A stretch of 48,395 nt of DNA from Patescibacteria group bacterium (GTDB taxonomy: Bacteria; Patescibacteriota; Doudnabacteria; UBA920), in NCBI GenBank assembly GCA_038065175.1, contig JBBTRN010000022.1, forward strand, positions 1 through 48,395, given 5' to 3'. The notes below the pieces were generated by a model. It was not told the origin of the DNA. It saw nothing but the letters and a program-made list of their open reading frames with translations, and ran no database searches. The stretch's first letter is position 1; every line of letters begins with the position of its first letter. A program made the translations under genes and the position numbers. Shown piece by piece: positions 4,285-47,797 of the stretch.

Positions 4285-4313
4285 ATTCTAGCAAAAAAAT
4301 CTCTATCTGTCAA
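4285..4313 (-). promoter_or_regulatory. Promoter of the surface-protein gene, TTGACA-17 nt-TAGAAT
   Basis: The reverse complement of 4308-4313 is TTGACA and of 4285-4290 is TAGAAT. About 190 nt of hairpin-rich 5' leader follow before ATG 4080. Confidence 0.55.
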
Positions 4314-6214
4314 CGGCACCCATCTTCTAGGCAATCTTCTAGGCGGTAAAGGTAACCAAATTCATGCTGTTCAGGCAATTCCCCGCCAATCCCCTGCTTA
4401 AGCGGTTCATCAGACAGGACAAAAACCGGCCGGCCATGGGGCAAGGTCTTTTTTAAAACGAAAATGGGCTGGCGGTCGTAAATTTCCATTGTATCCAGGC
4501 CTGACCAATATTGGAAATACAAATGGCCTTTGGGCAAGTTTGGAAAGTTGATAAGGAAAATAGCATCTTGCGTGTATTTTTCTTTAAGCTCCAACGCCGC
4601 CCGCTTGATCTGTTCTTGATATTGGTAACCTTCTCGCGGCTTTATGTCGGAAAGCCGGTTAGCGCGCGCATATGTGCCTAAAATTAAAAATAACGATAAT
4701 ACCATGGCGATTTTTGATCCCTGACCCCGCCCTCCGACTCGCTCCGCTCGCTTTGGCAACATACTATGGAATCCTTTTTCCAATAAACGATAAACCATCC
4801 ACAATGCGGCAAAAAGTAAGGCCGCGTACAGCAAAATCTGAAAGCGCTCAAAAGCGGTATTGGTTTGAAATAAATGATATTTTACCTGCCGCACATCTAA
4901 ACGTATAATGATGTATGATAAAATTGTCGTAGCCGATAAAGCAAACATCGCGGCATAATGTTTTTGTTCCCATAACCGCTTAAACATTAACGCCGTAAGC
5001 ATTAGCATGGCAGGCAAAGCCGCAAAAATAAAATTGGAAATTTTTGTCAGGCCAAAAGACAATGGCACCAAAAACGACAAAACCCAAATAGTCAGAAAAA
5101 AAATTCGCTCTTTACTTAAATACTGTACAGTATTTAAGTTAAAGCTGGATATTGGCTTTTTAAAACCTGCCCACAAACCAAAAATTATCGCGGCTACAGC
5201 AGACACATACAAATACGGCAACAGCATTTCCCGCAAATATATAGTCAGGTAATAATCCCACGGCCTGCCCCAATATTCTAATTCTTTTAATAAGTGCAGG
5301 GTCTGGGTATTTTGCTCAAAATAATATTCAGCGGGATATAGCAAAAACAAGCCAAGCTTTTCCGGCAAGATAATTATTAACATAGTAAGCCCCGCATACA
5401 AAAAATTTAATAATCCGCGTTTCCATCCATCGGCCGTTTTTGACACCATGAACAACGCCGGGAAAAATAGCAACGCCAATCCGCCTTTGCTTAAAAAAGC
5501 CAAGCCGGCAAACACTCCGAACCATAGATAATGCTTTCTCCTTGTCATTCCGAGCGAGCCCGACGGCTTCGAGGGCGAGTCGAGGAATCCCTTATTCGAC
5601 GTATCATCGATATTTAAGGGATCCCTCCACGCCTCTTCGGATGCACTCCTCGTTGGTCGGGATGACAGTTCTGTAATTCTCAAAACCCTACCCAGCGCCA
5701 AAATTCCAAAAAAACAAAACATCAAATCGTGCAAACCCGAAAACTGCCTGCCCTTTACCAATTCAAAAACATAAGGGCTAAAGGCAAACAAGCTGGCTGA
5801 TGTAACGGCAACCGCATACCCGAAATGCCTTCGCGCAACAAAAAAAAGCGCCGTGATCGATATCAAGGCAAATATTGCCGAGGGCAGCCTGAACGCAAAT
5901 AGCGAAGGGTTGATTTTATAAAAAACCGCCTGCAAATACAAAGGCGCTAAAGGTTTATGCACCCAAATATAGTTATTCGTCCAGTCCTGGAAATCTATGC
6001 CGATATCCGTCAAATGGAGCTTTGGCGGCCAAGGATCCTGACTTAAATTTTTCACGACATTGATATGGACAGCCTCATCCCACAAAGTAATGTAATCTGT
6101 GCCTAAATTATTAAAATAAAAATACCCGGACACAGCCAAAACAACCACCAGCGGTATAAGCTGGCCTTTGGGGCTAGCTACGAAAAAAATCCAAAGCTTT
6201 TTTACAAATTCCAC
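4310..6214 (-). CDS. GT39 / ArnT-PMT-like membrane glycosyltransferase
   Basis: Polytopic membrane protein with an N-terminal motif LWDEAVHINVVKNL typical of 4-amino-4-deoxy-L-arabinose/dolichyl-phosphate-mannose-type transferases. I moved the start to GTG 6214 because residues encoded by 6230-6409 belong to a repeat element. Confidence 0.65.
   Translation of the reverse strand: MEFVKKLWIFFVASPKGQLIPLVVVLAVSGYFYFNNLGTDYITLWDEAVHINVVKNLSQDPWPPKLHLTDIGIDFQDWTNNYIWVHKPLAPLYLQAVFYKINPSLFAFRLPSAIFALISITALFFVARRHFGYAVAVTSASLFAFSPYVFELVKGRQFSGLHDLMFCFFGILALGRVLRITELSSRPTRSASEEAWRDPLNIDDTSNKGFLDSPSKPSGSLGMTRRKHYLWFGVFAGLAFLSKGGLALLFFPALFMVSKTADGWKRGLLNFLYAGLTMLIIILPEKLGLFLLYPAEYYFEQNTQTLHLLKELEYWGRPWDYYLTIYLREMLLPYLYVSAVAAIIFGLWAGFKKPISSFNLNTVQYLSKERIFFLTIWVLSFLVPLSFGLTKISNFIFAALPAMLMLTALMFKRLWEQKHYAAMFALSATTILSYIIIRLDVRQVKYHLFQTNTAFERFQILLYAALLFAALWMVYRLLEKGFHSMLPKRAERVGGRGQGSKIAMVLSLFLILGTYARANRLSDIKPREGYQYQEQIKRAALELKEKYTQDAIFLINFPNLPKGHLYFQYWSGLDTMEIYDRQPIFVLKKTLPHGRPVFVLSDEPLKQGIGGELPEQHEFGYLYRLEDCLEDGCR
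5114..5139. repeat. 26-bp perfect palindrome ACTTAAATACTGTACAGTATTTAAGT inside the GT39 CDS
   Basis: Perfect dyad symmetry, read in frame as NLNTVQYLS. Two related copies lie at 46602-46631 and 47174-47199. Confidence 0.85.
5544..5666. repeat. Second copy of the GTCATTCCGAGCG-type palindromic element, in frame in the GT39 gene
   Basis: Sequence gtcattccgagcgagcccgacg...cgaggaatccctta...taagggatccct...cgttggtcgggatgac. It encodes SSRPTRSASEEAWRDPLNIDDTSNKGFLDSPSKPSGSLGMT without a stop. Confidence 0.75.
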
Positions 6215-6229
6215 AAAATAATAATACCA

Positions 6230-6409
6230 GGACTTACGGGTTTGAGCCAAGTTCCCTGCCTGCCGGCAGGCAGGGAGGCATTTTCCGAGGATTTTGAGAG
6301 CCGTAGTCGGACTACGGAGAACAAAACCGCAGCATTTTAACGAAGAAATTGGCCAAATGCCGTCTGGGGTCGGGCTTTGCCCACCCAATGACGGCAATCC
6401 CGTAAGTCC
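6230..6409. repeat. GGACTTACG-TIR structured element, copy 1
   Basis: Perfect 11-bp terminal inverted repeats ggacttacggg / cccgtaagtcc. The conserved core aggcattttccgaggattttgagag-hairpin-gaacaaaaccgcagcattttaacgaagaaattggccaa is shared with the copies at 33671-33830 (inverted) and 42864-43033. Confidence 0.8.
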
Positions 6410-6508
6410 TGAATACCACAAAATCAAGAGCGCGGTGTGTTATGGTCCCAAACCGCGCCCAGTGATAACTTTTAATTTCCTCCTTCATTTCCTCCTTCCT
6501 AGTGATTT

Positions 6509-11763: not shown

Positions 11764-13122
11764 TTAAAGTTCTTTCACCCTACCAAATCCCACGCTGTCC
11801 CTAAAGACCTTGCCAGCGGCTAGGATTGGCGCGCGGATGATAGTGAATTCGCCGTATTTGTCGTTAATTTGGTCTAGGGCTCTGGTTAAATTAAGATGTT
11901 TTTCCCGATGGCCAAATAAGCTTAACTGACTGCTTTTAGAACGCAAATTCGCCAGAGTAACACCAATGAGCTTAAAGGCTTGTCCTGATAATTTTAACCG
12001 CTCGAAAATAATCATGGCCTGTAAGAATACATCCCGTCCGTCAGAGACAAAATCCCCCAGCTTTAGGCTTTGCCCAAAGCCGCCGTAATCTCTATCATAG
12101 ATAAAAAAATGCAAAACATTGCCTTCCAAATTTTTCCGCCTTAAACGTCTCCCCACCATTTCGCATAATTTATACAGCACCGGCGCGAAAAATTCGGATT
12201 TGCGAAATTCTTTCGGCAAAGTGTACATATGGCCAATAGACTTAATTTCGTTGTCCTGATGAACATCCGCCTTCCAAGTCGAATCTAATTGGCCCAAATT
12301 ATACAAGTGATGTCCTTGGATGCGGCCAAACCTTGCTACCAAATGGCTCTTAGGGCAATTCTTTAAATCAAGAAGGGTGTGGATGCCTAAAGCGTTAAGG
12401 TTTTTCTCCTGTCGCGTCCCAATTCCAGGTACATCTGTCAATTTCAGACGACCGTACAAATTTTCTTTCGATAATACAAATAAATTATTTTTGAATTTTA
12501 AATTGTAATTTTGAGTTTTGCATTTTGCATTTTGAATTATTGTCAAGCCATCAGGCTTGCGTATGTCCGACCCGATTTTCGCCAATGTTTTATTTTCCGC
12601 TATGCCAATACTGCAAGTTAAATAATCCCCCACCTCGGTTTTCATTCGCCGTTTAATATCCAAAGAAATATTTATAGCTTCTTCAAAAGGATCAATCACC
12701 CCACCCCTTCCCTCCCCCTGGAGGGGAGGGATTGAGGGAGGGGGGCTTTTTGAAATTTGGCATTCGAATTTCGGATTTCTAATATTACATGTTCGTGTAA
12801 TATCCAAAAAAACTTCATCTATACTATATACTTCCACATCATCAGTATAATCAGACACGAGTTTGATTAACCTGCGCGTGTAAAACCGAAACCTCTCGGC
12901 CGTGGTGTGGGTTAAAATAATTTTCGGATAAAGCTTCTTGGCTTCCCACACCGGGGTGCCGGTTTTTATGCCCCATTTTTTGGCTTCTATGCTCGCGGCT
13001 ATAATAATCCCGCCCAAATCCTCGCACACACCCAAAACCTTGCCTCGGTATTCAGGATTATCCTGCTGGAGCACGGAGGCAAAATAACTATTCATGTCGA
13101 GATGGAGGATAATGGACTGCAT
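11764..13122 (-). CDS. dinB: DNA polymerase IV (Y-family) carrying two in-frame repeat insertions
   Basis: MQSIILHLDMNSYFASV, SIDEVFLDIT, SIGIAENKTLAKIGSDIRKPDG and DVPGIG motifs. Start set at Met10, because the first 9 codons are TTGATAA-type repeat sequence. Confidence 0.88.
   Translation of the reverse strand: MQSIILHLDMNSYFASVLQQDNPEYRGKVLGVCEDLGGIIIAASIEAKKWGIKTGTPVWEAKKLYPKIILTHTTAERFRFYTRRLIKLVSDYTDDVEVYSIDEVFLDITRTCNIRNPKFECQISKSPPPSIPPLQGEGRGGVIDPFEEAINISLDIKRRMKTEVGDYLTCSIGIAENKTLAKIGSDIRKPDGLTIIQNAKCKTQNYNLKFKNNLFVLSKENLYGRLKLTDVPGIGTRQEKNLNALGIHTLLDLKNCPKSHLVARFGRIQGHHLYNLGQLDSTWKADVHQDNEIKSIGHMYTLPKEFRKSEFFAPVLYKLCEMVGRRLRRKNLEGNVLHFFIYDRDYGGFGQSLKLGDFVSDGRDVFLQAMIIFERLKLSGQAFKLIGVTLANLRSKSSQLSLFGHREKHLNLTRALDQINDKYGEFTIIRAPILAAGKVFRDSVGFGRVKEL
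12488..12537. repeat. 8-nt-periodic AT-rich repeat arm inside dinB
   Basis: ttttgaattttaaattgtaattttgagttttgcattttgcattttgaatt, translated as NAKCKTQNYNLKFKN. This is extra sequence relative to the E. coli DinB spacing between KPxG and PGxG (from memory). Confidence 0.6.
12697..12790. repeat. GC-hairpin (CCCTCCCC-CTGG-AGGGGAGGG) plus 8-nt-periodic arm, in frame in dinB
   Basis: caccccaccccttccctccccctggaggggagggattgagggaggggggc followed by tttttgaaatttggcattcgaatttcgg. It encodes KFECQISKSPPPSIPPLQGEGRGGV. The same architecture occurs at 17089-17148 and 40524-40591. Confidence 0.8.
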
Positions 13123-21436: not shown

Positions 21437-21770
21437 ACTTCCTCGTTTCTTTGCAAGCGAATTTCCAGCACTTTATCGCCTGCGTTTGGAATGTGCTACT
21501 GTGCTGGTTGCTTTAAACATTCGGGTCCTTTTGCATTAGCGTACTAGTACAGTGATGCAAAAGGATGCGTAAAATAACCAAAACAAAAACACCTTCCGCA
21601 AAGGGCCGGGAGGTGTTCAAAACTAATATCTGGTATCTATTACCTAATATCTACATATCAAACTCCGGACTTTGCAGGTTTAGCAAAGCCCAGTTCCAGT
21701 TCTTGTTTAATTTAAATACCGTATTTTTCATACTAGCCCAACTATATACTACTCCGAATCCTTTGTCAAT

Positions 21771-21786
21771 AGCGTACTAGTACGCT
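21771..21786. repeat. Third GTACTAGTAC-core palindrome (AGCGTACTAGTACGCT) outside the cassette
   Basis: Perfect 16-bp palindrome, 27 nt downstream of the gpmI stop. Its left flank tcctttgtcaat resembles the arm tccttttgcatt of the 21526-21565 site. Confidence 0.8.
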
Positions 21787-21812
21787 GAAACATGAAAAAA
21801 TTAAAAACCTTG

Positions 21813-24503: not shown

Positions 24504-25038
24504 TTATAGATTTTTTAAAAAATTTTCTAATACAATGTTCATTGCCCATATTCCTGATCCTGCGAATGCCCAAAAAGGCACGCTTAACCAACTGGTAGTT
24601 CTGTTTAATAGTGGAAATTTTTCATAAAGCCATAAATGCCTTCCTCTTATCCCTAAATAAGTCTTACCCACCAATGCCTCAAGTAATGGGCCAAAAATTG
24701 ACCAAAAAAAGAAGATAGCAAATATTTTCATACCTTCAACCTTAAATAAAGGTTCCTCGCAGCAGAGCTGGCGAGGTATTAACTGCAAGGGGAGAACTAT
24801 CATTTCGGAGCAAAGCTCCGAGGTATTAAACCTGTATTAGCTCCTCGGCTCGCAAGATAATCCTTAAGGATTATCTTGACTCGCTCTACGTCGCGAATAA
24901 AAACAAAAATGATATTAACGGCAATATAAAAACTGCCGCATACTCATACCAAAAATATTTCTTTTTATAATGCAAAAAATGAGAGGTTAAAAGAAAACCA
25001 ACGGGTATGGATAATAAGTAAATCAAATGATATTGCAT
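24504..25038 (-). pseudogene. Membrane-protein gene apparently split by a repeat insertion
   Basis: A 50-codon ORF (24886-25038, MQYHLIYLLSIPVGFLL...) starts 1 nt after the pgk stop and ends in TAG inside repeat sequence (24735-24900, which includes gagtcaagataatccttaaggattatcttgcgag). A hydrophobic ORF resumes in another frame (24504-24803). Confidence 0.4.
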
Positions 25039-30520: not shown

Positions 30521-30980
30521 TTAGCCTTCTCCCTTTAGGGGAGAAGGTGGCCAACGGCCGGATGAGGGTATTAATAGTCTAACAAATTTTTCCTTAATTT
30601 CTCTAAAACTCCTTCTATATTTTTATCAACATCAATATTTTGAAATCTTAAAACTTTATAGCCTTGACCGATTGCATACTGCTGTTTATTTTCATCTTTG
30701 GTTTTTATTTCAGGTTCACTATGCTGACCGCCATCGAGTTCAACAATAATTTTCTTTTCATTACAACTAAAGTCATAGATATAATCCCCAATGACCATCT
30801 GTTTTTTAAATTTGAAACCATAAAATCTTCTGTTTCTCAATCTTTCCCACAGCTTTATTTCCCAAGGAGTTTCTTTTTTTCGTAAGCTCCTGGAAAGGTT
30901 GACAAAATTTTTATCAAGATTTCGCATAAGTCACCCTCATCCGCCCTTCGGGCACCTTCTCCCCGCCGGGAGAAGGCTAA
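30521..30980. mobile_element. DUF559 gene flanked by ~49-bp hairpin-containing terminal inverted repeats
   Basis: Left end: ttagccttctccctttaggggagaaggtggccaacggccggatgagggt. Reverse complement of the right end: ttagccttctcccggcggggagaaggtgcccgaagggcggatgagggt. The element exactly fills the gap between the stop of 30977..31339 and the tkt start region. Confidence 0.7.
30571..30927 (-). CDS. DUF559 (Vsr-like endonuclease fold) protein
   Basis: SRSLRKKETPWEIKLWERLRNRRFYGFKFKKQMVIGDYIYDFSC...IIVELDGGQH...VLRFQN matches the DUF559 pattern. Confidence 0.8.
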   Translation of the reverse strand: MRNLDKNFVNLSRSLRKKETPWEIKLWERLRNRRFYGFKFKKQMVIGDYIYDFSCNEKKIIVELDGGQHSEPEIKTKDENKQQYAIGQGYKVLRFQNIDVDKNIEGVLEKLRKNLLDY

Positions 30981-33327: not shown

Positions 33328-33732
33328 CTAATTTTTACGCAATATTCGATGTGGTAAGGCAGACCGTGCCCAAAAGTTTACTAATAAACCTAAATCAAGA
33401 TTAAGAATCTGTAAATATCTCTGAACTTGCGTATAGTCATCCTGGCTTAAAAATGGCTTTGCTTTAATCTCAACAAGAATTTTATCATAAACAATTAAAT
33501 CAATCCGGTTACCTGTATTACCTGCCACCAATTCTCTTCTGCATGGAATAGTTAGTTCTCCAAACCTTACCACCATTATATCACCATATTGTTTTTCTTT
33601 AGCAAAGCGGCCTAATCTCTTTTGCGCGTAGAAACAAACTCCTGCAATCTGAAAGGATTCATCTGCATCAGGACTTACGCACCGCCGCTTTTTAGTCAGG
33701 CCAAGCCTGACTTGCAAAGCGGCTCTGGCCAA
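33328..33732 (-). CDS. GxxExxY-family (PD-(D/E)XK-like) protein; the only in-frame start lies inside a repeat
   Basis: FQIAGVCFYAQKRLGRFAKEKQY...RIDLIVYDKILVEIKAKPFL...GLLVNF. The first ~24 codons come from the nested repeat at 33671-33830. Confidence 0.6.
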   Translation of the reverse strand: MARAALQVRLGLTKKRRCVSPDADESFQIAGVCFYAQKRLGRFAKEKQYGDIMVVRFGELTIPCRRELVAGNTGNRIDLIVYDKILVEIKAKPFLSQDDYTQVQRYLQILNLDLGLLVNFWARSALPHRILRKN

Positions 33733-33830
33733 CTTCTTCGTTATTTTCCTGCGGTTTTTGTCGTCGTAGTCTGACTACGCCTCCAAAAATCCTCGGAAAA
33801 TGCCTCGAATTTGGCTCAGTGCGTAAGTCC
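33671..33830. repeat. GGACTTACG-TIR structured element, copy 2 (inverted relative to copies 1 and 3)
   Basis: Termini ggacttacgca / tgcgtaagtcc. The core aligns with copies 1 and 3 after reverse complementation. Confidence 0.8.
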
Positions 33831-33916
33831 TGTGCATATAAAACCTTCTCTTTATCGACTTTATAATTCGTCATATTCGCAGCCATTCGCAGATTCGTTC
33901 CATTCGCAGATTCGAT

Positions 33917-35136: not shown

Positions 35137-36006
35137 TCACTCATACCGATCCGAATGACCCGAATCATTATCCGAATTATCCGAATTTCCACTTCGGGTC
35201 ATTCGGGTATAATTCGTAGATTTGGGTCGGTTTAAATAATTTTGCAAAATTATCTGCGCGGCTAAACTGTCTTTATTTTTATCTCCGCCCGGCAAATTCT
35301 TGGTCATTGCTGATGATAATCTTTCATCCATAACCTCAACTTTCAAACCCGTTTTACTTTCCACTTGCACCTTGAACCTTGCAACTTCTTTTGTCTTCTC
35401 TGTTTCTTCTCCGCTCATATTCAAAGGCCAGCCAAGAACAATGGTGGTAATCTGATGCTGGCCGATGATTGATGGTATTTGTTTCCAAAATTCTTTGGGA
35501 GATAAAATAGTTAGCTCTCTAGCCAAAACCTGCGATTCATCGGAAATTGCCAAGCCGATCCGTTTTTCTCCATAGTCGATTCCTAATGCCCGACCCGAAT
35601 TACCCGAATTTGAATCCGAATTACCCGAATTAAAAGCGCTATTTAATACTCTTTTTGGTTTTAAATGGGAATCGCGAAAATTTACAATCATACCCAACTC
35701 AAGATTAGCTCCAAATAAATACCTTAGCATCTGATAATAATCTTCTTTGGTGATATAATTTTTGGCTTTAAAATCAACTAATATCTTTTGAGCTATATAA
35801 AAATCGACTTTATTCCCTGCTGGTGATTTGGGATTTAGTTGGACGATATTATATTCCCTTTTATAATTCACTTTCTCGAACTTTAATAAATCTTCAAATT
35901 CATCACAATATTGCCTCTCTCTACAAAATCGCCCCAACTTTCTTTGCACACGAAAACACAAACCTGTAATTTGATAAGATAAATCTTTTTCTATAATTCG
36001 GGACAT
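35137..36006 (-). CDS. ruvX: In-frame fusion: GxxExxY PD-(D/E)XK-like domain + RuvX/YqgF resolvase-like nuclease + repeat-encoded tail
   Basis: N-terminal part: MSRIIEKDLSYQITGLCFRVQRKLGRFCRERQY...VDFYIAQKILVDFKAKN...GMIVNF. Linker NSGNSDSNSGNSG is encoded by CCGAAT repeats. The RuvX core is RALGIDYGEKRIGLAISD...IVLGWPLNMSG. The tail is NYTRMTRSGNSDNSDNDSGHSDRYE. No canonical start codon precedes the RuvX core. Confidence 0.65.
   Translation of the reverse strand: MSRIIEKDLSYQITGLCFRVQRKLGRFCRERQYCDEFEDLLKFEKVNYKREYNIVQLNPKSPAGNKVDFYIAQKILVDFKAKNYITKEDYYQMLRYLFGANLELGMIVNFRDSHLKPKRVLNSAFNSGNSDSNSGNSGRALGIDYGEKRIGLAISDESQVLARELTILSPKEFWKQIPSIIGQHQITTIVLGWPLNMSGEETEKTKEVARFKVQVESKTGLKVEVMDERLSSAMTKNLPGGDKNKDSLAAQIILQNYLNRPKSTNYTRMTRSGNSDNSDNDSGHSDRYE
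35146..35230. repeat. Cargo-less CCGAAT/ATTCGG short-repeat hairpin at the 3' end of ruvX
   Basis: ccgatccgaatgacccgaatcattatccgaattatccgaatttcc / cttcgggtcattcgggtataattcgtagatttgggtcgg. Confidence 0.65.
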
Positions 36007-36037
36007 TCGGATAAAATTCGTAGATTCGGGTCGGTTA

Positions 36038-42612: not shown

Positions 42613-42843
42613 TTAATTAAATTTATGGTTAATATCCATTAATTGGTTCCGTAAAGTTTTCAGCTCCCAATAATACCCCACATACTTGTCTATAAATTTT
42701 ACCAAATCCTCCCTGCTTTTAACCTGTTCGCAAACCGGCTCAAAAGCCTTCATAATTATTACCATGTCTTTCAGTGAAATTTTCTGATCCTGCAAAAGCT
42801 TGCCGATAAATTTTGAAAAAATATTAATGTAATTTTCTTCCAT
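42613..42843 (-). CDS. Hypothetical protein (76 aa)
   Basis: ORF only. Its stop lies 3 nt before the next start. Repeat copy 3 ends 20 nt upstream of its ATG. Confidence 0.45.
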   Translation of the reverse strand: MEENYINIFSKFIGKLLQDQKISLKDMVIIMKAFEPVCEQVKSREDLVKFIDKYVGYYWELKTLRNQLMDINHKFN

Positions 42844-42863
42844 TTTACGCTTTGACTTTTATA

Positions 42864-43033
42864 GGACTTACGCGCTTGGCCAAGAATGAGGCATTTTGTG
42901 AGGATTTTGAGAGGCGTACTTTGCGTACGCCGAACAAAACCGCGGCAAAATAACGAAATTATTGGCCAAGCCCTTGCGGTTCCAACCCTTAAGTTCCGGC
43001 TTTGCCGGACTTTGAGTTGGAACGCGTAAGTCC
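42864..43033. repeat. GGACTTACG-TIR structured element, copy 3
   Basis: Termini ggacttacgcg / cgcgtaagtcc. Conserved core aggcattttgtgaggattttgagag-gcgtac-tttg-cgtacgc-cgaacaaaaccgcggcaaaataacgaaattattggccaag. Confidence 0.8.
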
Positions 43034-43053
43034 TATTTTAGCTTTACAGCTTT

Positions 43054-45609
43054 TTACAAGCCGCGTTCAATGCTGGGCAATGCTTCGGACATATTCTCCG
43101 CGACCTGGCTCGCTTCCAAAAGCTCCTTTTCCACTTCTGCGCGGGGGCGCCCATATTTTAACCTGGACAGTTGCCTAATGGCTTCAGCAATTTCCTCGCT
43201 ACCTTCTCTCCTGGGCGGCATGGTGGCCATATTAAACGGCTTACTGGCCGTGCCGTTGACCATAAGCTTTACATAAGCATTATATCTGTCTATATTAACC
43301 AAATCAAATTGGTTAAAAGTCGGCGCGAATTCCTTGCCTAAAACTTCGCTGTCTTCCGCGCCGGTCCTGAATACGACCATACTGCCCACATTGCCGAACA
43401 CGGCATCCCGTAAATCTTTGGTGCTCGCGCCTTGCGCCCCGGCCTGGGTTTCCAGTTGGCCTAAATACTGATGCGCAATAATCAGATTTAATTTATATTT
43501 CCTGGCTTCTGAAAGAATCGACGAGAAAGCGTCAGTAATGAAATTTTGGAACTCATCGACATACAAATAAAAGTCTTTGCGTTTTTCTTCAGGCATATCC
43601 GCTCTGGATAAAGCGGCGATTTGGATTTTAGAAACTAAAATTAATCCCAATAATTTCGCGTTAATTTCACCCGTGCGGCCCTTAGACAAATTTACCAAAA
43701 GCACCTTCCCCTCGTCCATTACGCGCCTAAAATTAAAACCGCTCTTCGGCTGGCCAATAATGTTGCGCATCATGGTATTTTCCACAAACCTGCCGACTTT
43801 GGAAATTAAATAGCCGAGCATTTCGCTCTTGTGGAAGTCCGAAGTTTTAGCCATTTCTTTTTCCCAAAACAGCCTCACCACAGGGTCTTTAACTTTGGAA
43901 AGTTTATAGCGCTGAAATTCAGTGTCAGTAAAAATCCTTGGGATGTCTGCCACCGTTCCGGGATGCTCTTCGTCTGCCATAAGCGTGAGCATGGCGTTCC
44001 TCATATTGTGCTCGAACATAGGCCCAAGCATTGCCGGGTCAGTCACCAGTTTATAAAAAATAGAAATCATTTCCTGCACTGCGAAATCTTTTTGCTCCTC
44101 GCTGTCGACTTCGAGCATATTTAAACCAATGGGCCTGTCCATGTCAAACGGCTCTAAGACTATTATGTCTTCCGCCCTTTCTTTTGGGCAATTAAGTAAA
44201 ATATCCTGGATTAAATCCCCGTGCGGGTCAACAACGCACAAGCCTTCACCGTTTTTAATATCCTGGATAGCCATGTTGGCAAGCAGGACTGATTTGCCGC
44301 TGCCTGTCCTGCCTAAAATATAAGTGTGTCTGCGCCTGTCTTCGCGGCCCTGGTAAATCGGCGTTTCCATATTTCTATAAATATTTTTGCCGATTAATAA
44401 TCCTTCCTGATAAACATTTATGGGAGGCGGCGCTTTTTTGGAAATCAGCCATTTGATATTTGGCGTTTCTATATACGGAGTGGGTAGATGCCACAAAGAA
44501 CACATTTCTTCCGTGTTAATGATATTGGTATTTCCGTAATCCCTAAAAACGCGAAATATATAATCTTTCAATATATCGTCTTTGCTCCTTCTTTTAACCC
44601 TAAAACCGTTAAATGGAGGCATGTTAAATTGCAAAAAACTGGACATAAGGTTGTGCATATGGGTCTTGGCATTTCCCGGAATTGCCGATGATGTAATCAA
44701 TCTAATATTTGCCTTATAGCCCGGACGGCTGGCTTTTTCTTCTAATTTTTTCACAATCTCCTGCTGCATTGGAGTCAATTGGATAGGCGCGGCATAACCG
44801 GTTAAATCCTTATGGATATGGGATCCCGAAGACTGGCCTTTGCTCACAGTGCCCGTTATGGCTCCGGCAAAAAATCTTCTAAACCCCACAAAAAACCTAT
44901 AAATATGCCCCCGTTCTATTAGTTCCGGATTTTTTCCCTGTTGGACTTCCAGTGCCATATGTCTCGGCGTAGCCTGCCAACCGGTGCCAGCAGGGCTAAT
45001 AACATACTGAATAGCCGCGCCTTCATTCTCCTGCAATTTCGACATAGCGTTAGTAAGGGCATTTAGAGGGTCAGTCTCCGTGATTTTATAAGTCCTAAAA
45101 GGGTAAACATATTTTTTATTCAGGCACAGTTCGCGAACTTCCACCTCCGCGCCTTTTTGAAATGGATTATAGCCGCGAACCTGTTCCAAAAACGCGTGCG
45201 GGTACTGGGCCTGCAGCTGCTTTTCCACCAATTGTTGCAAATGTTTCGGGCAATTAATAAAAAATGAAATCTTTTTTTCAGTGCAGGCGATTTCAAAACT
45301 GTAATAATCCTTGCCCTTAAGCCAACCCCTTGAATTCCCCGATTCCGACAAAGTGGTAAACAACTGCTCCCCTACCGAGATCATATGTTTTTTTTCTTCC
45401 TCTGCTTTTACGCGCTGCTGCTCCTTTTCCTCACTGCTCTCTTTGGGCATTTGGATTTCCAAAAACACCCAGTCCATTGTACGGGGTATAATGTGACCCT
45501 TGTGGTAAATATGCCGCTTGAAATAATAAAAAAACACGGCCAGGAAGACTATTACAAGGCCAATTAGCAACGATATAGCGATTTGCACCGCGCTCAAATC
45601 AACCGGCAT
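43054..45609 (-). CDS. TraD/VirD4/TrwB-like (type IV coupling-protein-like) P-loop ATPase with an N-terminal TM helix
   Basis: TM helix IAISLLIGLVIVFLAVFFYYF. Walker A ILGRTGSGKS, Walker B FYLYVDEFQNF, IIAHQYLGQL. Confidence 0.65.
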   Translation of the reverse strand: MPVDLSAVQIAISLLIGLVIVFLAVFFYYFKRHIYHKGHIIPRTMDWVFLEIQMPKESSEEKEQQRVKAEEEKKHMISVGEQLFTTLSESGNSRGWLKGKDYYSFEIACTEKKISFFINCPKHLQQLVEKQLQAQYPHAFLEQVRGYNPFQKGAEVEVRELCLNKKYVYPFRTYKITETDPLNALTNAMSKLQENEGAAIQYVISPAGTGWQATPRHMALEVQQGKNPELIERGHIYRFFVGFRRFFAGAITGTVSKGQSSGSHIHKDLTGYAAPIQLTPMQQEIVKKLEEKASRPGYKANIRLITSSAIPGNAKTHMHNLMSSFLQFNMPPFNGFRVKRRSKDDILKDYIFRVFRDYGNTNIINTEEMCSLWHLPTPYIETPNIKWLISKKAPPPINVYQEGLLIGKNIYRNMETPIYQGREDRRRHTYILGRTGSGKSVLLANMAIQDIKNGEGLCVVDPHGDLIQDILLNCPKERAEDIIVLEPFDMDRPIGLNMLEVDSEEQKDFAVQEMISIFYKLVTDPAMLGPMFEHNMRNAMLTLMADEEHPGTVADIPRIFTDTEFQRYKLSKVKDPVVRLFWEKEMAKTSDFHKSEMLGYLISKVGRFVENTMMRNIIGQPKSGFNFRRVMDEGKVLLVNLSKGRTGEINAKLLGLILVSKIQIAALSRADMPEEKRKDFYLYVDEFQNFITDAFSSILSEARKYKLNLIIAHQYLGQLETQAGAQGASTKDLRDAVFGNVGSMVVFRTGAEDSEVLGKEFAPTFNQFDLVNIDRYNAYVKLMVNGTASKPFNMATMPPRREGSEEIAEAIRQLSRLKYGRPRAEVEKELLEASQVAENMSEALPSIERGL

Positions 45610-46601: not shown

Positions 46602-46631
46602 GTACTTAAATACTGTACAGTATTTAAGTAC
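46602..46631. repeat. 30-bp perfect palindrome GTACTTAAATACTGTACAGTATTTAAGTAC
   Basis: Perfect dyad. It supplies the TAA stop of the YerC-like gene and sits 20 nt upstream of ATG 46581. Confidence 0.85.
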
Positions 46632-47157: not shown

Positions 47158-47173
47158 AAAAAAATATGCCTTT

Positions 47174-47199
47174 ACTTACATACTATACAGTATTTAAGT
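47174..47199. promoter_or_regulatory. Imperfect copy of the 26-bp palindrome, 17 nt upstream of the YerC-like ATG (candidate operator)
   Basis: acttacatactatacagtatttaagt has 2 mismatches to dyad symmetry. It overlaps a minus-strand TATAGT -10 candidate and supplies the TAG stop of the HAD gene. Confidence 0.4.
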
Positions 47200-47797
47200 A
47201 TGTGTCAATTATATATTTTGTGGAGTTAAAATCCTTATGAAGCTGTGCGTTAAAACCAAAAGCCTTTGCCGAAGCAATTACTGAGGGTGTGTCATCGATT
47301 ACCAAAACTTCAGCTTTTCGCACTTTTGGGATTCTTTTATGCGCCTCTTGCCAAAATTCCACTTGAGGTTTTAAGAATCCCAGCTCAAACGAAGCCAAAG
47401 TGCCGTTTAAAAATTCACTCAAACCCACCATACTCCACAAATACCTCACCCGATACTTTTCATTATTGGTCGAGAGATAACACGCAATACCTTTCTGGCG
47501 GAGAACCTGAATGTATTCCAACATTCTCTTGTCCGCATCCGCCTCGCCACTAAACCAAAAATCTAATAATTCTTCTAAAGATTTATCCCAACCCCAAGCG
47601 CTAATTCTGCCCGCCAATTCCTCCTTTAAATCGGCCTTGCCAGTTTCACACAACAAAAATTCTTTGCCAAAAAAATCATGAATTTTTTTGGCATCTAATT
47701 CAATACCTAAATCCATCAAACGCGCACTAAAATATTTTTCCCTCCTAATGATCGGCCCGTCGCAGTCAAATAAAATAACTTTGATCATAAAATTCAA
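47183..47797 (-). CDS. HAD-superfamily hydrolase
   Basis: ILFDCDGPII (DxDG motif I), STNN, and VIDD near the C-terminus. Confidence 0.75.
   Translation of the reverse strand: MNFMIKVILFDCDGPIIRREKYFSARLMDLGIELDAKKIHDFFGKEFLLCETGKADLKEELAGRISAWGWDKSLEELLDFWFSGEADADKRMLEYIQVLRQKGIACYLSTNNEKYRVRYLWSMVGLSEFLNGTLASFELGFLKPQVEFWQEAHKRIPKVRKAEVLVIDDTPSVIASAKAFGFNAQLHKDFNSTKYIIDTYLNTV

Follow-up and report, generated by a model that had tools for sequence, protein, structure and literature searches.

The question raised by this locus was what kind of element occurs three times, bounded by inverted repeats and with a foldable interior, in a stretch of 48,395 nt from a Patescibacteria group bacterium (Doudnabacteria; assembly GCA_038065175.1, contig JBBTRN010000022.1). 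This whole stretch is called the window in the following. A preliminary description had reported three copies of an element of about 160-180 nt with compensatory changes that preserve a fold, and had proposed that it is either a mobile gene for a non-coding RNA or a structured miniature inverted-repeat transposable element (MITE). The repeats are MITEs: they have inverted-repeat termini, a target-site duplication of fixed length, a small size without a transposase, dispersed copies and termini shared with an insertion sequence (IS). The termini are those of the ISPlag1 group, and very probably the elements were moved in trans. The interior hairpin is most likely a fold selected in single-stranded form.

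The three copies, their ends and the adjoining duplications were located as follows.

6228..6411, plus strand: MITE copy 1, 184 nt, with both ends confirmed by loose metagenome contig ends at 6228 and 6411
6223..6227 (left) and 6412-6416 (right): target-site duplication AATAC of copy 1
13 nt at each end of copy 1: perfect terminal repeat, CAGGACTTACGGG/CCCGTAAGTCCTG
33669..33832, minus strand: MITE copy 2, 164 nt, in the opposite orientation to copies 1 and 3 and inside a PDDEXK_3/GxxExxY gene
33664..33668 and 33833-33837: target-site duplication TGCAT of copy 2
42862..43035, plus strand: MITE copy 3, 174 nt, in a 31-nt spacer between two minus-strand genes
42857..42861 and 43036-43040: target-site duplication TTTTA of copy 3

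All three copies were confirmed, with true ends 2 nt further out on each side than first described. They are homologous end to end, with a mean column identity of 75% in the alignment, and follow the pattern YAGGACTTACG...CGTAAGTCCTR. The terminal inverted repeat bounding each copy is YAGGACTTACGC/G, and the six exact occurrences of GGACTTACG in the window are all at the six element termini. The repeats are perfect in every copy, as had been noted, over 13-14 nt and not 11 nt. Among 59 aligned copies, AGGACTTACG was invariant at the left end and TCCT, the last four bases, at the right end. A supposed compensation between C-G and T-A at the outermost position did not hold, since the end bases were nearly independent in 123 elements (T/A 65, T/G 20, C/G 19, C/A 16). 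The junctions read AATAC-CAGGAC...GTCCTG-AATAC, TGCAT-CAGGAC...GTCCTG-TGCAT and TTTTA-TAGGAC...GTCCTA-TTTTA. An exact AT-rich duplication of 5 bp was thus present at the same offset in 3 of 3 copies (chance about 1e-7), and this was the sole combination of offset and length of at least 4 bp that fitted all three. The preliminary description had named such duplications as a point to check and had not seen them.

No protein is encoded by the element; only short open reading frames (ORFs) lie within it (32-58 aa in copy 1), and longer ones just enter from the flank. A covariance model of the conserved arm described below, R1, found the three copies and no others in the window, with 98.1 bits for copy 2, 93.1 bits for copy 3 and 43.7 bits for copy 1. 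A near-match at 12560 was rejected as a fourth copy, as it sits within an ORF. Neither a tRNA nor a tmRNA was found in the window.

A full-text search with the terminus led to ISPlag1 of Planktothrix agardhii (PMC2464740). This IS of the IS701 group is 1306 bp long, encodes a single DDE transposase of 337 aa and is bounded by the inverted repeat CAGGACTTACGCAAGCACGCTATATATAG. In the terminal 13 nt, CAGGACTTACGCA, copy 2 is identical to ISPlag1 (13/13), and copies 1 and 3 are each off at 2 positions. A full ISPlag1 copy was recovered on a Planktothrix plasmid (L122:40031-41334) with the termini CAGGACTTACGCA.../...TGCGTAAGTCCTG; it is annotated as 'IS701-like element ISPlag1 family transposase' and contains the Pfam domain DDE_5. 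Homologues of the transposase number more than 7258, the best 120 having 64-100% identity, and a family so large and conserved fits with one terminal sequence being kept across phyla.

The termini were then used alone for a scan, with the pattern AGGACTTACG-N135-165-CGTAAGTCCT and one genome per species. At least 120 loci were obtained, and among those listed the hosts were Cyanobacteria, Poribacteria, Chloroflexota, Patescibacteria, Gammaproteobacteria, Bacteroidota and one archaeal bin. The Patescibacteria among the listed matches were Saccharibacteria, Doudnabacteria and Microgenomates. The elements were about 155-185 nt in size and had only 12-13 terminal bases in common, with unrelated interiors. 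That the same 13 nt are invariant around unrelated interiors in other phyla suggests, as far as sequence can tell, that they may be a protein-binding site and not a helix. A perfect 5-bp duplication, counted at the same offset and length only, was observed at 76 of 123 elements with these termini; a control shifted by 20 nt gave 1 match. For the Patescibacteria-type copies the figure was 53 of 101, and a further 21 matched at 4 of 5 positions. The ISPlag1 termini and the 5-bp duplications together identify the window elements as MITEs of the ISPlag1 group. In the literature, the terminal 12-mer was found in one relevant paper, that on ISPlag1, and no description of the element itself or of MITEs in Patescibacteria was found.

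One sign of mobility is copy 2, which interrupts a gene.

33328..33886, minus strand: PDDEXK_3 (GxxExxY) gene split by copy 2, with codons 1-18 at 33886-33833 and the remainder at 33668-33328

The insertion point is between codons 18 and 19. When copy 2 and one duplication were removed in silico, the ATG at 33886 was in frame to the ORF end at 33328 and gave a protein of 129 aa. The restored protein matches Pfam PDDEXK_3 (E=1.9e-15). The window also encodes a paralogue (35644-36021), and the alignment of the two proteins runs through the junction (37% identity, E=1e-21). The idea that copy 2 donates the only in-frame ATG of this ORF was therefore wrong; the native ATG lies upstream, and the ORF that enters the element starts with TTG. 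In mechanical ORF calls at 4310-6427 and 33328-33732, TTG starts (6427 and 33732) are reported within MITE copies, and the contig L255 has such a call as well. Gene callers can thus extend or mis-start genes that neighbour a copy.

High copy numbers were found in nature. Two scans gave at least 120 public loci each, and 3 copies lie within the 48 kb of the window. One groundwater metagenome contains the copy 1 locus; there the k-mer depth was 70-160 over copy 1 and 7.7 in its flanks (about 10-20x), and several different flanks join precisely at 6228 and 6411. The excess depth and the varied flanks show that many near-identical copy-1 sequences are present elsewhere in that community. The structured MITE first proposed as one alternative is accordingly supported by the duplications, the ISPlag1 termini, the disrupted gene, the metagenome copy number and the conserved fold.

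We then asked whether the interior is conserved as a structure. Each copy folds as a Y shape, with z-scores of -7.3 (copy 1), -11.4 (copy 2) and -8.9 (copy 3). A metagenome scan with a pattern of the left arm yielded at least 120 further loci, from which 93 distinct full copies were taken. For the alignment A3, 59 copies of less than 93% identity were aligned with plain MAFFT, and the RNAalifold consensus consisted of a terminal helix and a long hairpin of about 97 nt, P2-P5. The parts of the fold in the window are the following.

42876..42971, plus strand: conserved left-arm hairpin P2-P5 of copy 3, matched by the R1 covariance model and covarying
33723-33818, minus strand: the same hairpin in copy 2
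6266-6358, plus strand: the same hairpin in copy 1
42972..43021, plus strand: variable 3' hairpin of copy 3 with the cap GGC-TTT-GCC, an optional module that is missing in short-form members
6254..6275, plus strand: perfect palindrome CCCTGCCTGCCGGCAGGCAGGG of about 20-22 nt in the left arm of copy 1 only, a gap in the alignment of the other copies

In the 59 copies, 95.7% of the pair cells were standard pairs, compared to 80.4% with shuffled partners and 26-42% when the partners were slid by 1-3 columns. Changes on both sides were found in 24 of 38 pairs, with up to 6 standard pair types at one position, which bears out the compensatory changes first described. The individual helices first listed are also present, including the change from 4 to 5 T in GGATTTTG/CAAAACC, and covary in these public copies. 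Variants of the P5 hairpin such as CCGTAG/CTACGG, GTCCCG/CGGGAT, CCATAG/CTATGG and ACGTAC/GTACG all pair. The P3 tetramer is fully complementary in 90 of the 93 copies, mainly as AAAT/ATTT, AAAC/GTTT or TTTT/AAAA. In copy 1 P3 is unpaired (TTTT/ATTT), and this copy appears to be a chimera. Its palindrome, CCTGCCTGCCGGCAGGCAGG (6254-6275), contains a 20-mer that also occurs once in an unrelated groundwater contig, L155:1790-1809.

The same covariation might come from a fold that has no function, if template switching or gene conversion in quasi-palindromic DNA had produced the compensation or if the copies descended from a few ancestral subfamilies. Double changes are indeed shared in blocks, such as four adjacent flips from A-U to U-A in P3 that occur in 23-24 of the 59 copies and are probably one event; singleton changes in paired columns break the pair in 14 cases and keep it in 12, and copy 1 multiplies despite its broken P3. 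This high-copy variant shows that full pairing is unnecessary for transposition. However, the extent of the covariation and the divergent P5 sequences that still pair argue against a functionless fold, template switching leaves the strand-specific, conserved unpaired purines unexplained, and the interiors of the remaining same-termini subfamilies show much less structure (median z -2.3, versus -5.9 for the Patescibacteria subfamily). We consider a functionless fold rather unlikely. The interior of the Patescibacteria subfamily is more than a chance remnant. Its compensatory changes may nevertheless have arisen by mutation alone, or the RNA may have a true function that benefits the host.

The unpaired purines form two sites. 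An RA ahead of the invariant GGC faces AAC-RAA, and G-A faces G-A beside P5; GGC, AAC-AA and the two G.A motifs are conserved at 92-100%. These two purine-rich internal loops look like tandem G.A pairs in the modelled fold. The scan pattern had imposed RAGGCA and TAACRAAR, yet both were also present in 18 of 19 Patescibacteria-type copies from the scan with termini only, the poorly aligned L070 being the one without them. The asymmetry of the purine loops makes the two strands unequal. In 89 of 93 copies the aligned strand has the more stable fold, by 8.2 kcal/mol on average, and this is effectively one inherited feature and not 89. A stable, imperfect and strand-asymmetric hairpin with conserved unpaired bases would also be expected of a hairpin-dependent single-stranded DNA system, such as REP/RAYT, palindrome-associated elements of the IS200/IS605 type or the attC sites of integrons. 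Such systems do not have the 5-bp duplications and long perfect terminal repeats seen here, the termini match a DDE IS, and by inspection no conserved attC-like pair of RYYYAAC/GTTRRRY was present, so that a relation of this kind is extremely unlikely. Inspection also showed that the loops misfit the canonical patterns of the K-turn, the hairpin ribozyme and attC.

Searches against Rfam gave no assignment. The window had no match at the gathering score, elements in L040, L022 and L027 had none at E<=1, Poribacteria- and Nostoc-type loci had none, and copy 2 had only chance hairpin matches at E<=10. Of the two database checks first suggested, the one for IS elements thus led to a known group for the termini, and the one with Infernal and Rfam left the element itself without a match.

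The arm is combined with other parts in a modular way. A short form of about 120 nt consists of terminus, arm and terminus, and long forms add the 3' hairpin. The 3' cap GGC-TTN-GCC, first described as constant, is present in the three window copies; in the family it is found in 51 of 93 members (72 of 93 when written as GGC-N2-4-GCC), and the hairpin is absent from the short forms. A covariance model had been suggested as a check; R1, which found just the three copies in the window, gave weaker matches elsewhere. One of them, at L140:5900-6050, is a diverged arm (32.6 bits) whose bounding inverted repeats, TAGAAATCTTTCACG/CGTGAAAGATTTCTA, have diverged as well, so that its sequence points to a related MITE lineage in which the termini have changed. 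Another quasi-palindromic repeat, about 185 nt long, was seen at L125:5524-5712, L129:1808-1990 and L232:7744-7873; its ends are different from those of the MITE and covary (GAGCTCATTTCAAAACCC versus TGAGATGGTTTCAAAAACC), and its apex hairpin CGTAGTAGTAACTACGGTGAGG has a weak likeness to P5 of the MITE arm, with 27-29 bits in the covariance model.

Such an arm could have been the structured 5' leader or 3' end of an ISPlag1-group IS of Patescibacteria, from which the MITE subfamilies would be derived by internal deletion. Selection on the fold would then have taken place in the parent, for example for the control of transposase translation. MITEs commonly arise by deletion, and the short and long forms as well as the diverged arm between diverged termini in L140 agree with this origin. 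Against it, a transposase gene follows in 0 of 142 arm-containing matches, and the left end of ISPlag1 has no likeness to the arm. We regard this origin as conceivable but doubtful. The arm might also be a functional RNA module, protein-binding or regulatory and built around the two tandem G.A loops, that is spread through Patescibacteria by transposon ends and modulates expression of the packed operons in their reduced genomes. The diverged arm and termini in L140 and the apex hairpin in L125, L129 and L232 would fit a module that outlives its ends, and hint, at the level of sequence, at a module in its own right. This proposal is tentative and in our view somewhat unlikely to be correct.

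The favoured reading is that of a MITE with ISPlag1-group termini and a selected hairpin, and it can be put as a sequence of steps. An ISPlag1-like DDE transposase supplied in trans would bind the 13-nt termini, cut the target with a 5-bp stagger and insert the element. The interior hairpin would act in single-stranded form, most probably as RNA that is co-transcribed with the tightly packed genes around it. It would have been selected in the propagating lineages, either because it makes insertions into short operon spacers tolerable or because it originated as a structured leader with a regulatory role in the parent IS. The median distance to the genes on both sides is 27 nt, and with spacers so short most copies are likely to be co-transcribed with their neighbours. 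Copy 3 lies between the following genes.

43054-45609, minus strand: gene for a protein similar to type IV secretion system (T4SS) coupling proteins, next to copy 3
42613-42843, minus strand: 76-aa ORF on the other side of copy 3

Several results weigh against this reading. A tblastn search of the window and of fetched loci totalling about 1.75 Mb, roughly half from the Patescibacteria-type scan, gave no transposase of the ISPlag1 family among the Patescibacteria. Over all loci the tblastn matches were on Planktothrix plasmids only, and a search of 120 loci for the C1 signature motif of the transposase had no match; the autonomous partner in Patescibacteria is one that we infer. An empty site was not found, as no joint bypassing the element was present in four metagenome runs, and the sole other contig with the copy 2 locus, the groundwater contig L255 reached by way of the neighbouring triosephosphate isomerase gene, is also filled. 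None of six full-length ISPlag1 copies had a clean 5-bp duplication, so that for the parent group the length is taken from the MITEs alone. The observed covariation score was matched by 0 of 500 shuffles, but the copies share descent and shuffle-based statistics overstate their independence. Of the copies between co-directional genes, 38 had the aligned strand antisense to these genes and 16 had it in the sense direction (p=0.004), which disagrees with a simple model of a sense RNA within operons. In four metatranscriptomes related copies were contained only in longer, unstranded contigs, where carry-over of DNA is possible. As candidates for the autonomous partner, pairs of inverted repeats 250-4000 nt apart were inspected and rejected; they were neighbouring MITEs, for example at L040:5710-6934 around an EamA-like gene.

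The orientation bias could be explained by selection against the more stable sense fold in operons, by an outward promoter at the left end or by a preference of the transposase during insertion. At the left end of copy 1, a TTGGCT within the element resembles a -35 box; it is separated by 18 nt from a flanking TATTAT, and the arrangement is directly upstream of a gene start. This hybrid of -35 and -10 is absent from the left end of copy 3, which has a different, internal promoter-like site, and from copy 2. An outward promoter was rejected as a general feature, because it was seen at copy 1 only and 12 of 59 copies have a changed -35-like TTGGC. An intrinsic terminator was rejected as well; no T run follows the 3' hairpin in copies 1 and 2, and copy 3 has a weak tail.

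These data also bear on the other alternative first proposed. If the element were primarily a non-coding RNA gene or a cis-regulatory RNA useful to the host, the repeats would be its closing helix and mobility would be secondary. The conserved loop nucleotides, the strand-asymmetric stability, the biased orientation relative to genes, the promoter-like arrangement at copy 1 and the related copies in metatranscriptome contigs can all be counted for this. RNA runs containing copy 1 were not found. A host RNA is hard to reconcile with copy 2, which sits in a coding sequence and destroys it and has no promoter-like site, with the different site in copy 3, or with flanking genes that have nothing in common. 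Moreover, the invariant 13-nt termini are shared with unrelated interiors across phyla, the variant with the highest copy number has a broken P3, and Rfam has no match. A primary role as a host RNA is therefore improbable, and the MITE with a selected hairpin is preferred.

Further repeats were observed in the window. A perfect or near-perfect palindrome of 28 nt, TACTTAAATACTGTACAGTATTTAAGTA, is found at three places (5113-5140, 46603-46630 and 47173-47200), each a short way upstream of a minus-strand ORF; it looks like a repressor operator, and its core ACTGTACAGT resembles a LexA-type box by its sequence. A motif of about 30 nt, CAGTGTACTAGTACGCTAGTGCAAAAGGA, is located at 20412-20442, 21526-21554 and 21757-21787, once in one orientation and twice inverted, around ORFs at 20640-21436. 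GC-rich inverted repeats of 32 nt (30538-30569 and 30933-30964, 88% complementary) flank an ORF of 118 aa at 30571-30927, whose counterpart in L255 has a Pfam match to DUF559; the ORF with its repeats could represent a small mobile cassette. Repeats with much ATTCGCAG/CGAATCTGCGAAT lie on either side of each of the two GxxExxY/PDDEXK_3 genes, in one case as a 26-nt inverted repeat (33295-33320/33873-33898) and in the other as a 40-nt direct repeat with 90% identity (35193-35232/35997-36036); these genes, too, could be cassette-like. The non-coding region 24744-24903 has 73-87% identity to Doudnabacteria loci (L027:55-137, 87%; L072:763-910, 73%). Of its three hairpins, two have GGTATTAA directly after them. 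The region has no Rfam match and could represent a further repeat family or a conserved RNA.

The very small, gene-dense genomes of Patescibacteria are commonly said to contain little mobile DNA. The present elements are a recently active MITE family, widespread in Patescibacteria of groundwater and spread over Saccharibacteria, Doudnabacteria and Microgenomates. In at least 7 phyla, MITEs that share these 10-13-nt termini appear to be supported by transposases of the ISPlag1 type. The elements break assemblies, create false ORF starts and can inactivate genes, as with copy 2. Almost no non-coding RNAs are known in Patescibacteria, and with its covariation and its purine loops specific to one strand the conserved arm offers this group a well-delimited candidate structured RNA. 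The R1 covariance model can be used to annotate the family.

How does the element compare with known systems? With ISPlag1 it shares the terminal 13 nt, exactly so in copy 2, and in Planktothrix short non-coding derivatives with ISPlag1 repeats have been reported as 197-bp remnants (PMC2464740). It differs from ISPlag1 in having no transposase gene, an interior unlike the ISPlag1 ends with a covarying hairpin inside, and a host in the Patescibacteria instead of the Cyanobacteria. The 5-bp duplication of the window copies is also not clean in the six full ISPlag1 copies. The MITE subfamilies of Nostoc/Calothrix, Poribacteria and Chloroflexota have the termini, the 5-bp duplication and the size of 155-185 nt in common with the window element, whereas their interiors are unrelated and on average far less structured. 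The ISAba11 group, described as an emerging relative of the IS701 family, is bounded by inverted repeats of 13 bp and makes a short target duplication, reported as 6 bp (PMC7519801); its relation to ISPlag1 is nominal, and the two are set side by side by description only. By analogy, the element resembles structured MITEs that are transcribed together with adjacent genes, namely ERIC/IRU of enterobacteria, Correia of Neisseria and RUP/BOX of pneumococci, which like the window element are small, non-coding, bounded by inverted repeats, intergenic and able to form long hairpins. For ERIC, compensatory substitutions that preserve an RNA fold have been reported. In contrast to ERIC, Correia, RUP and BOX, to which it has no sequence similarity, the window element belongs with another transposase family, and its fold is a local arm with purine-rich loops and not the simple pairing of one half to the other found in those elements.

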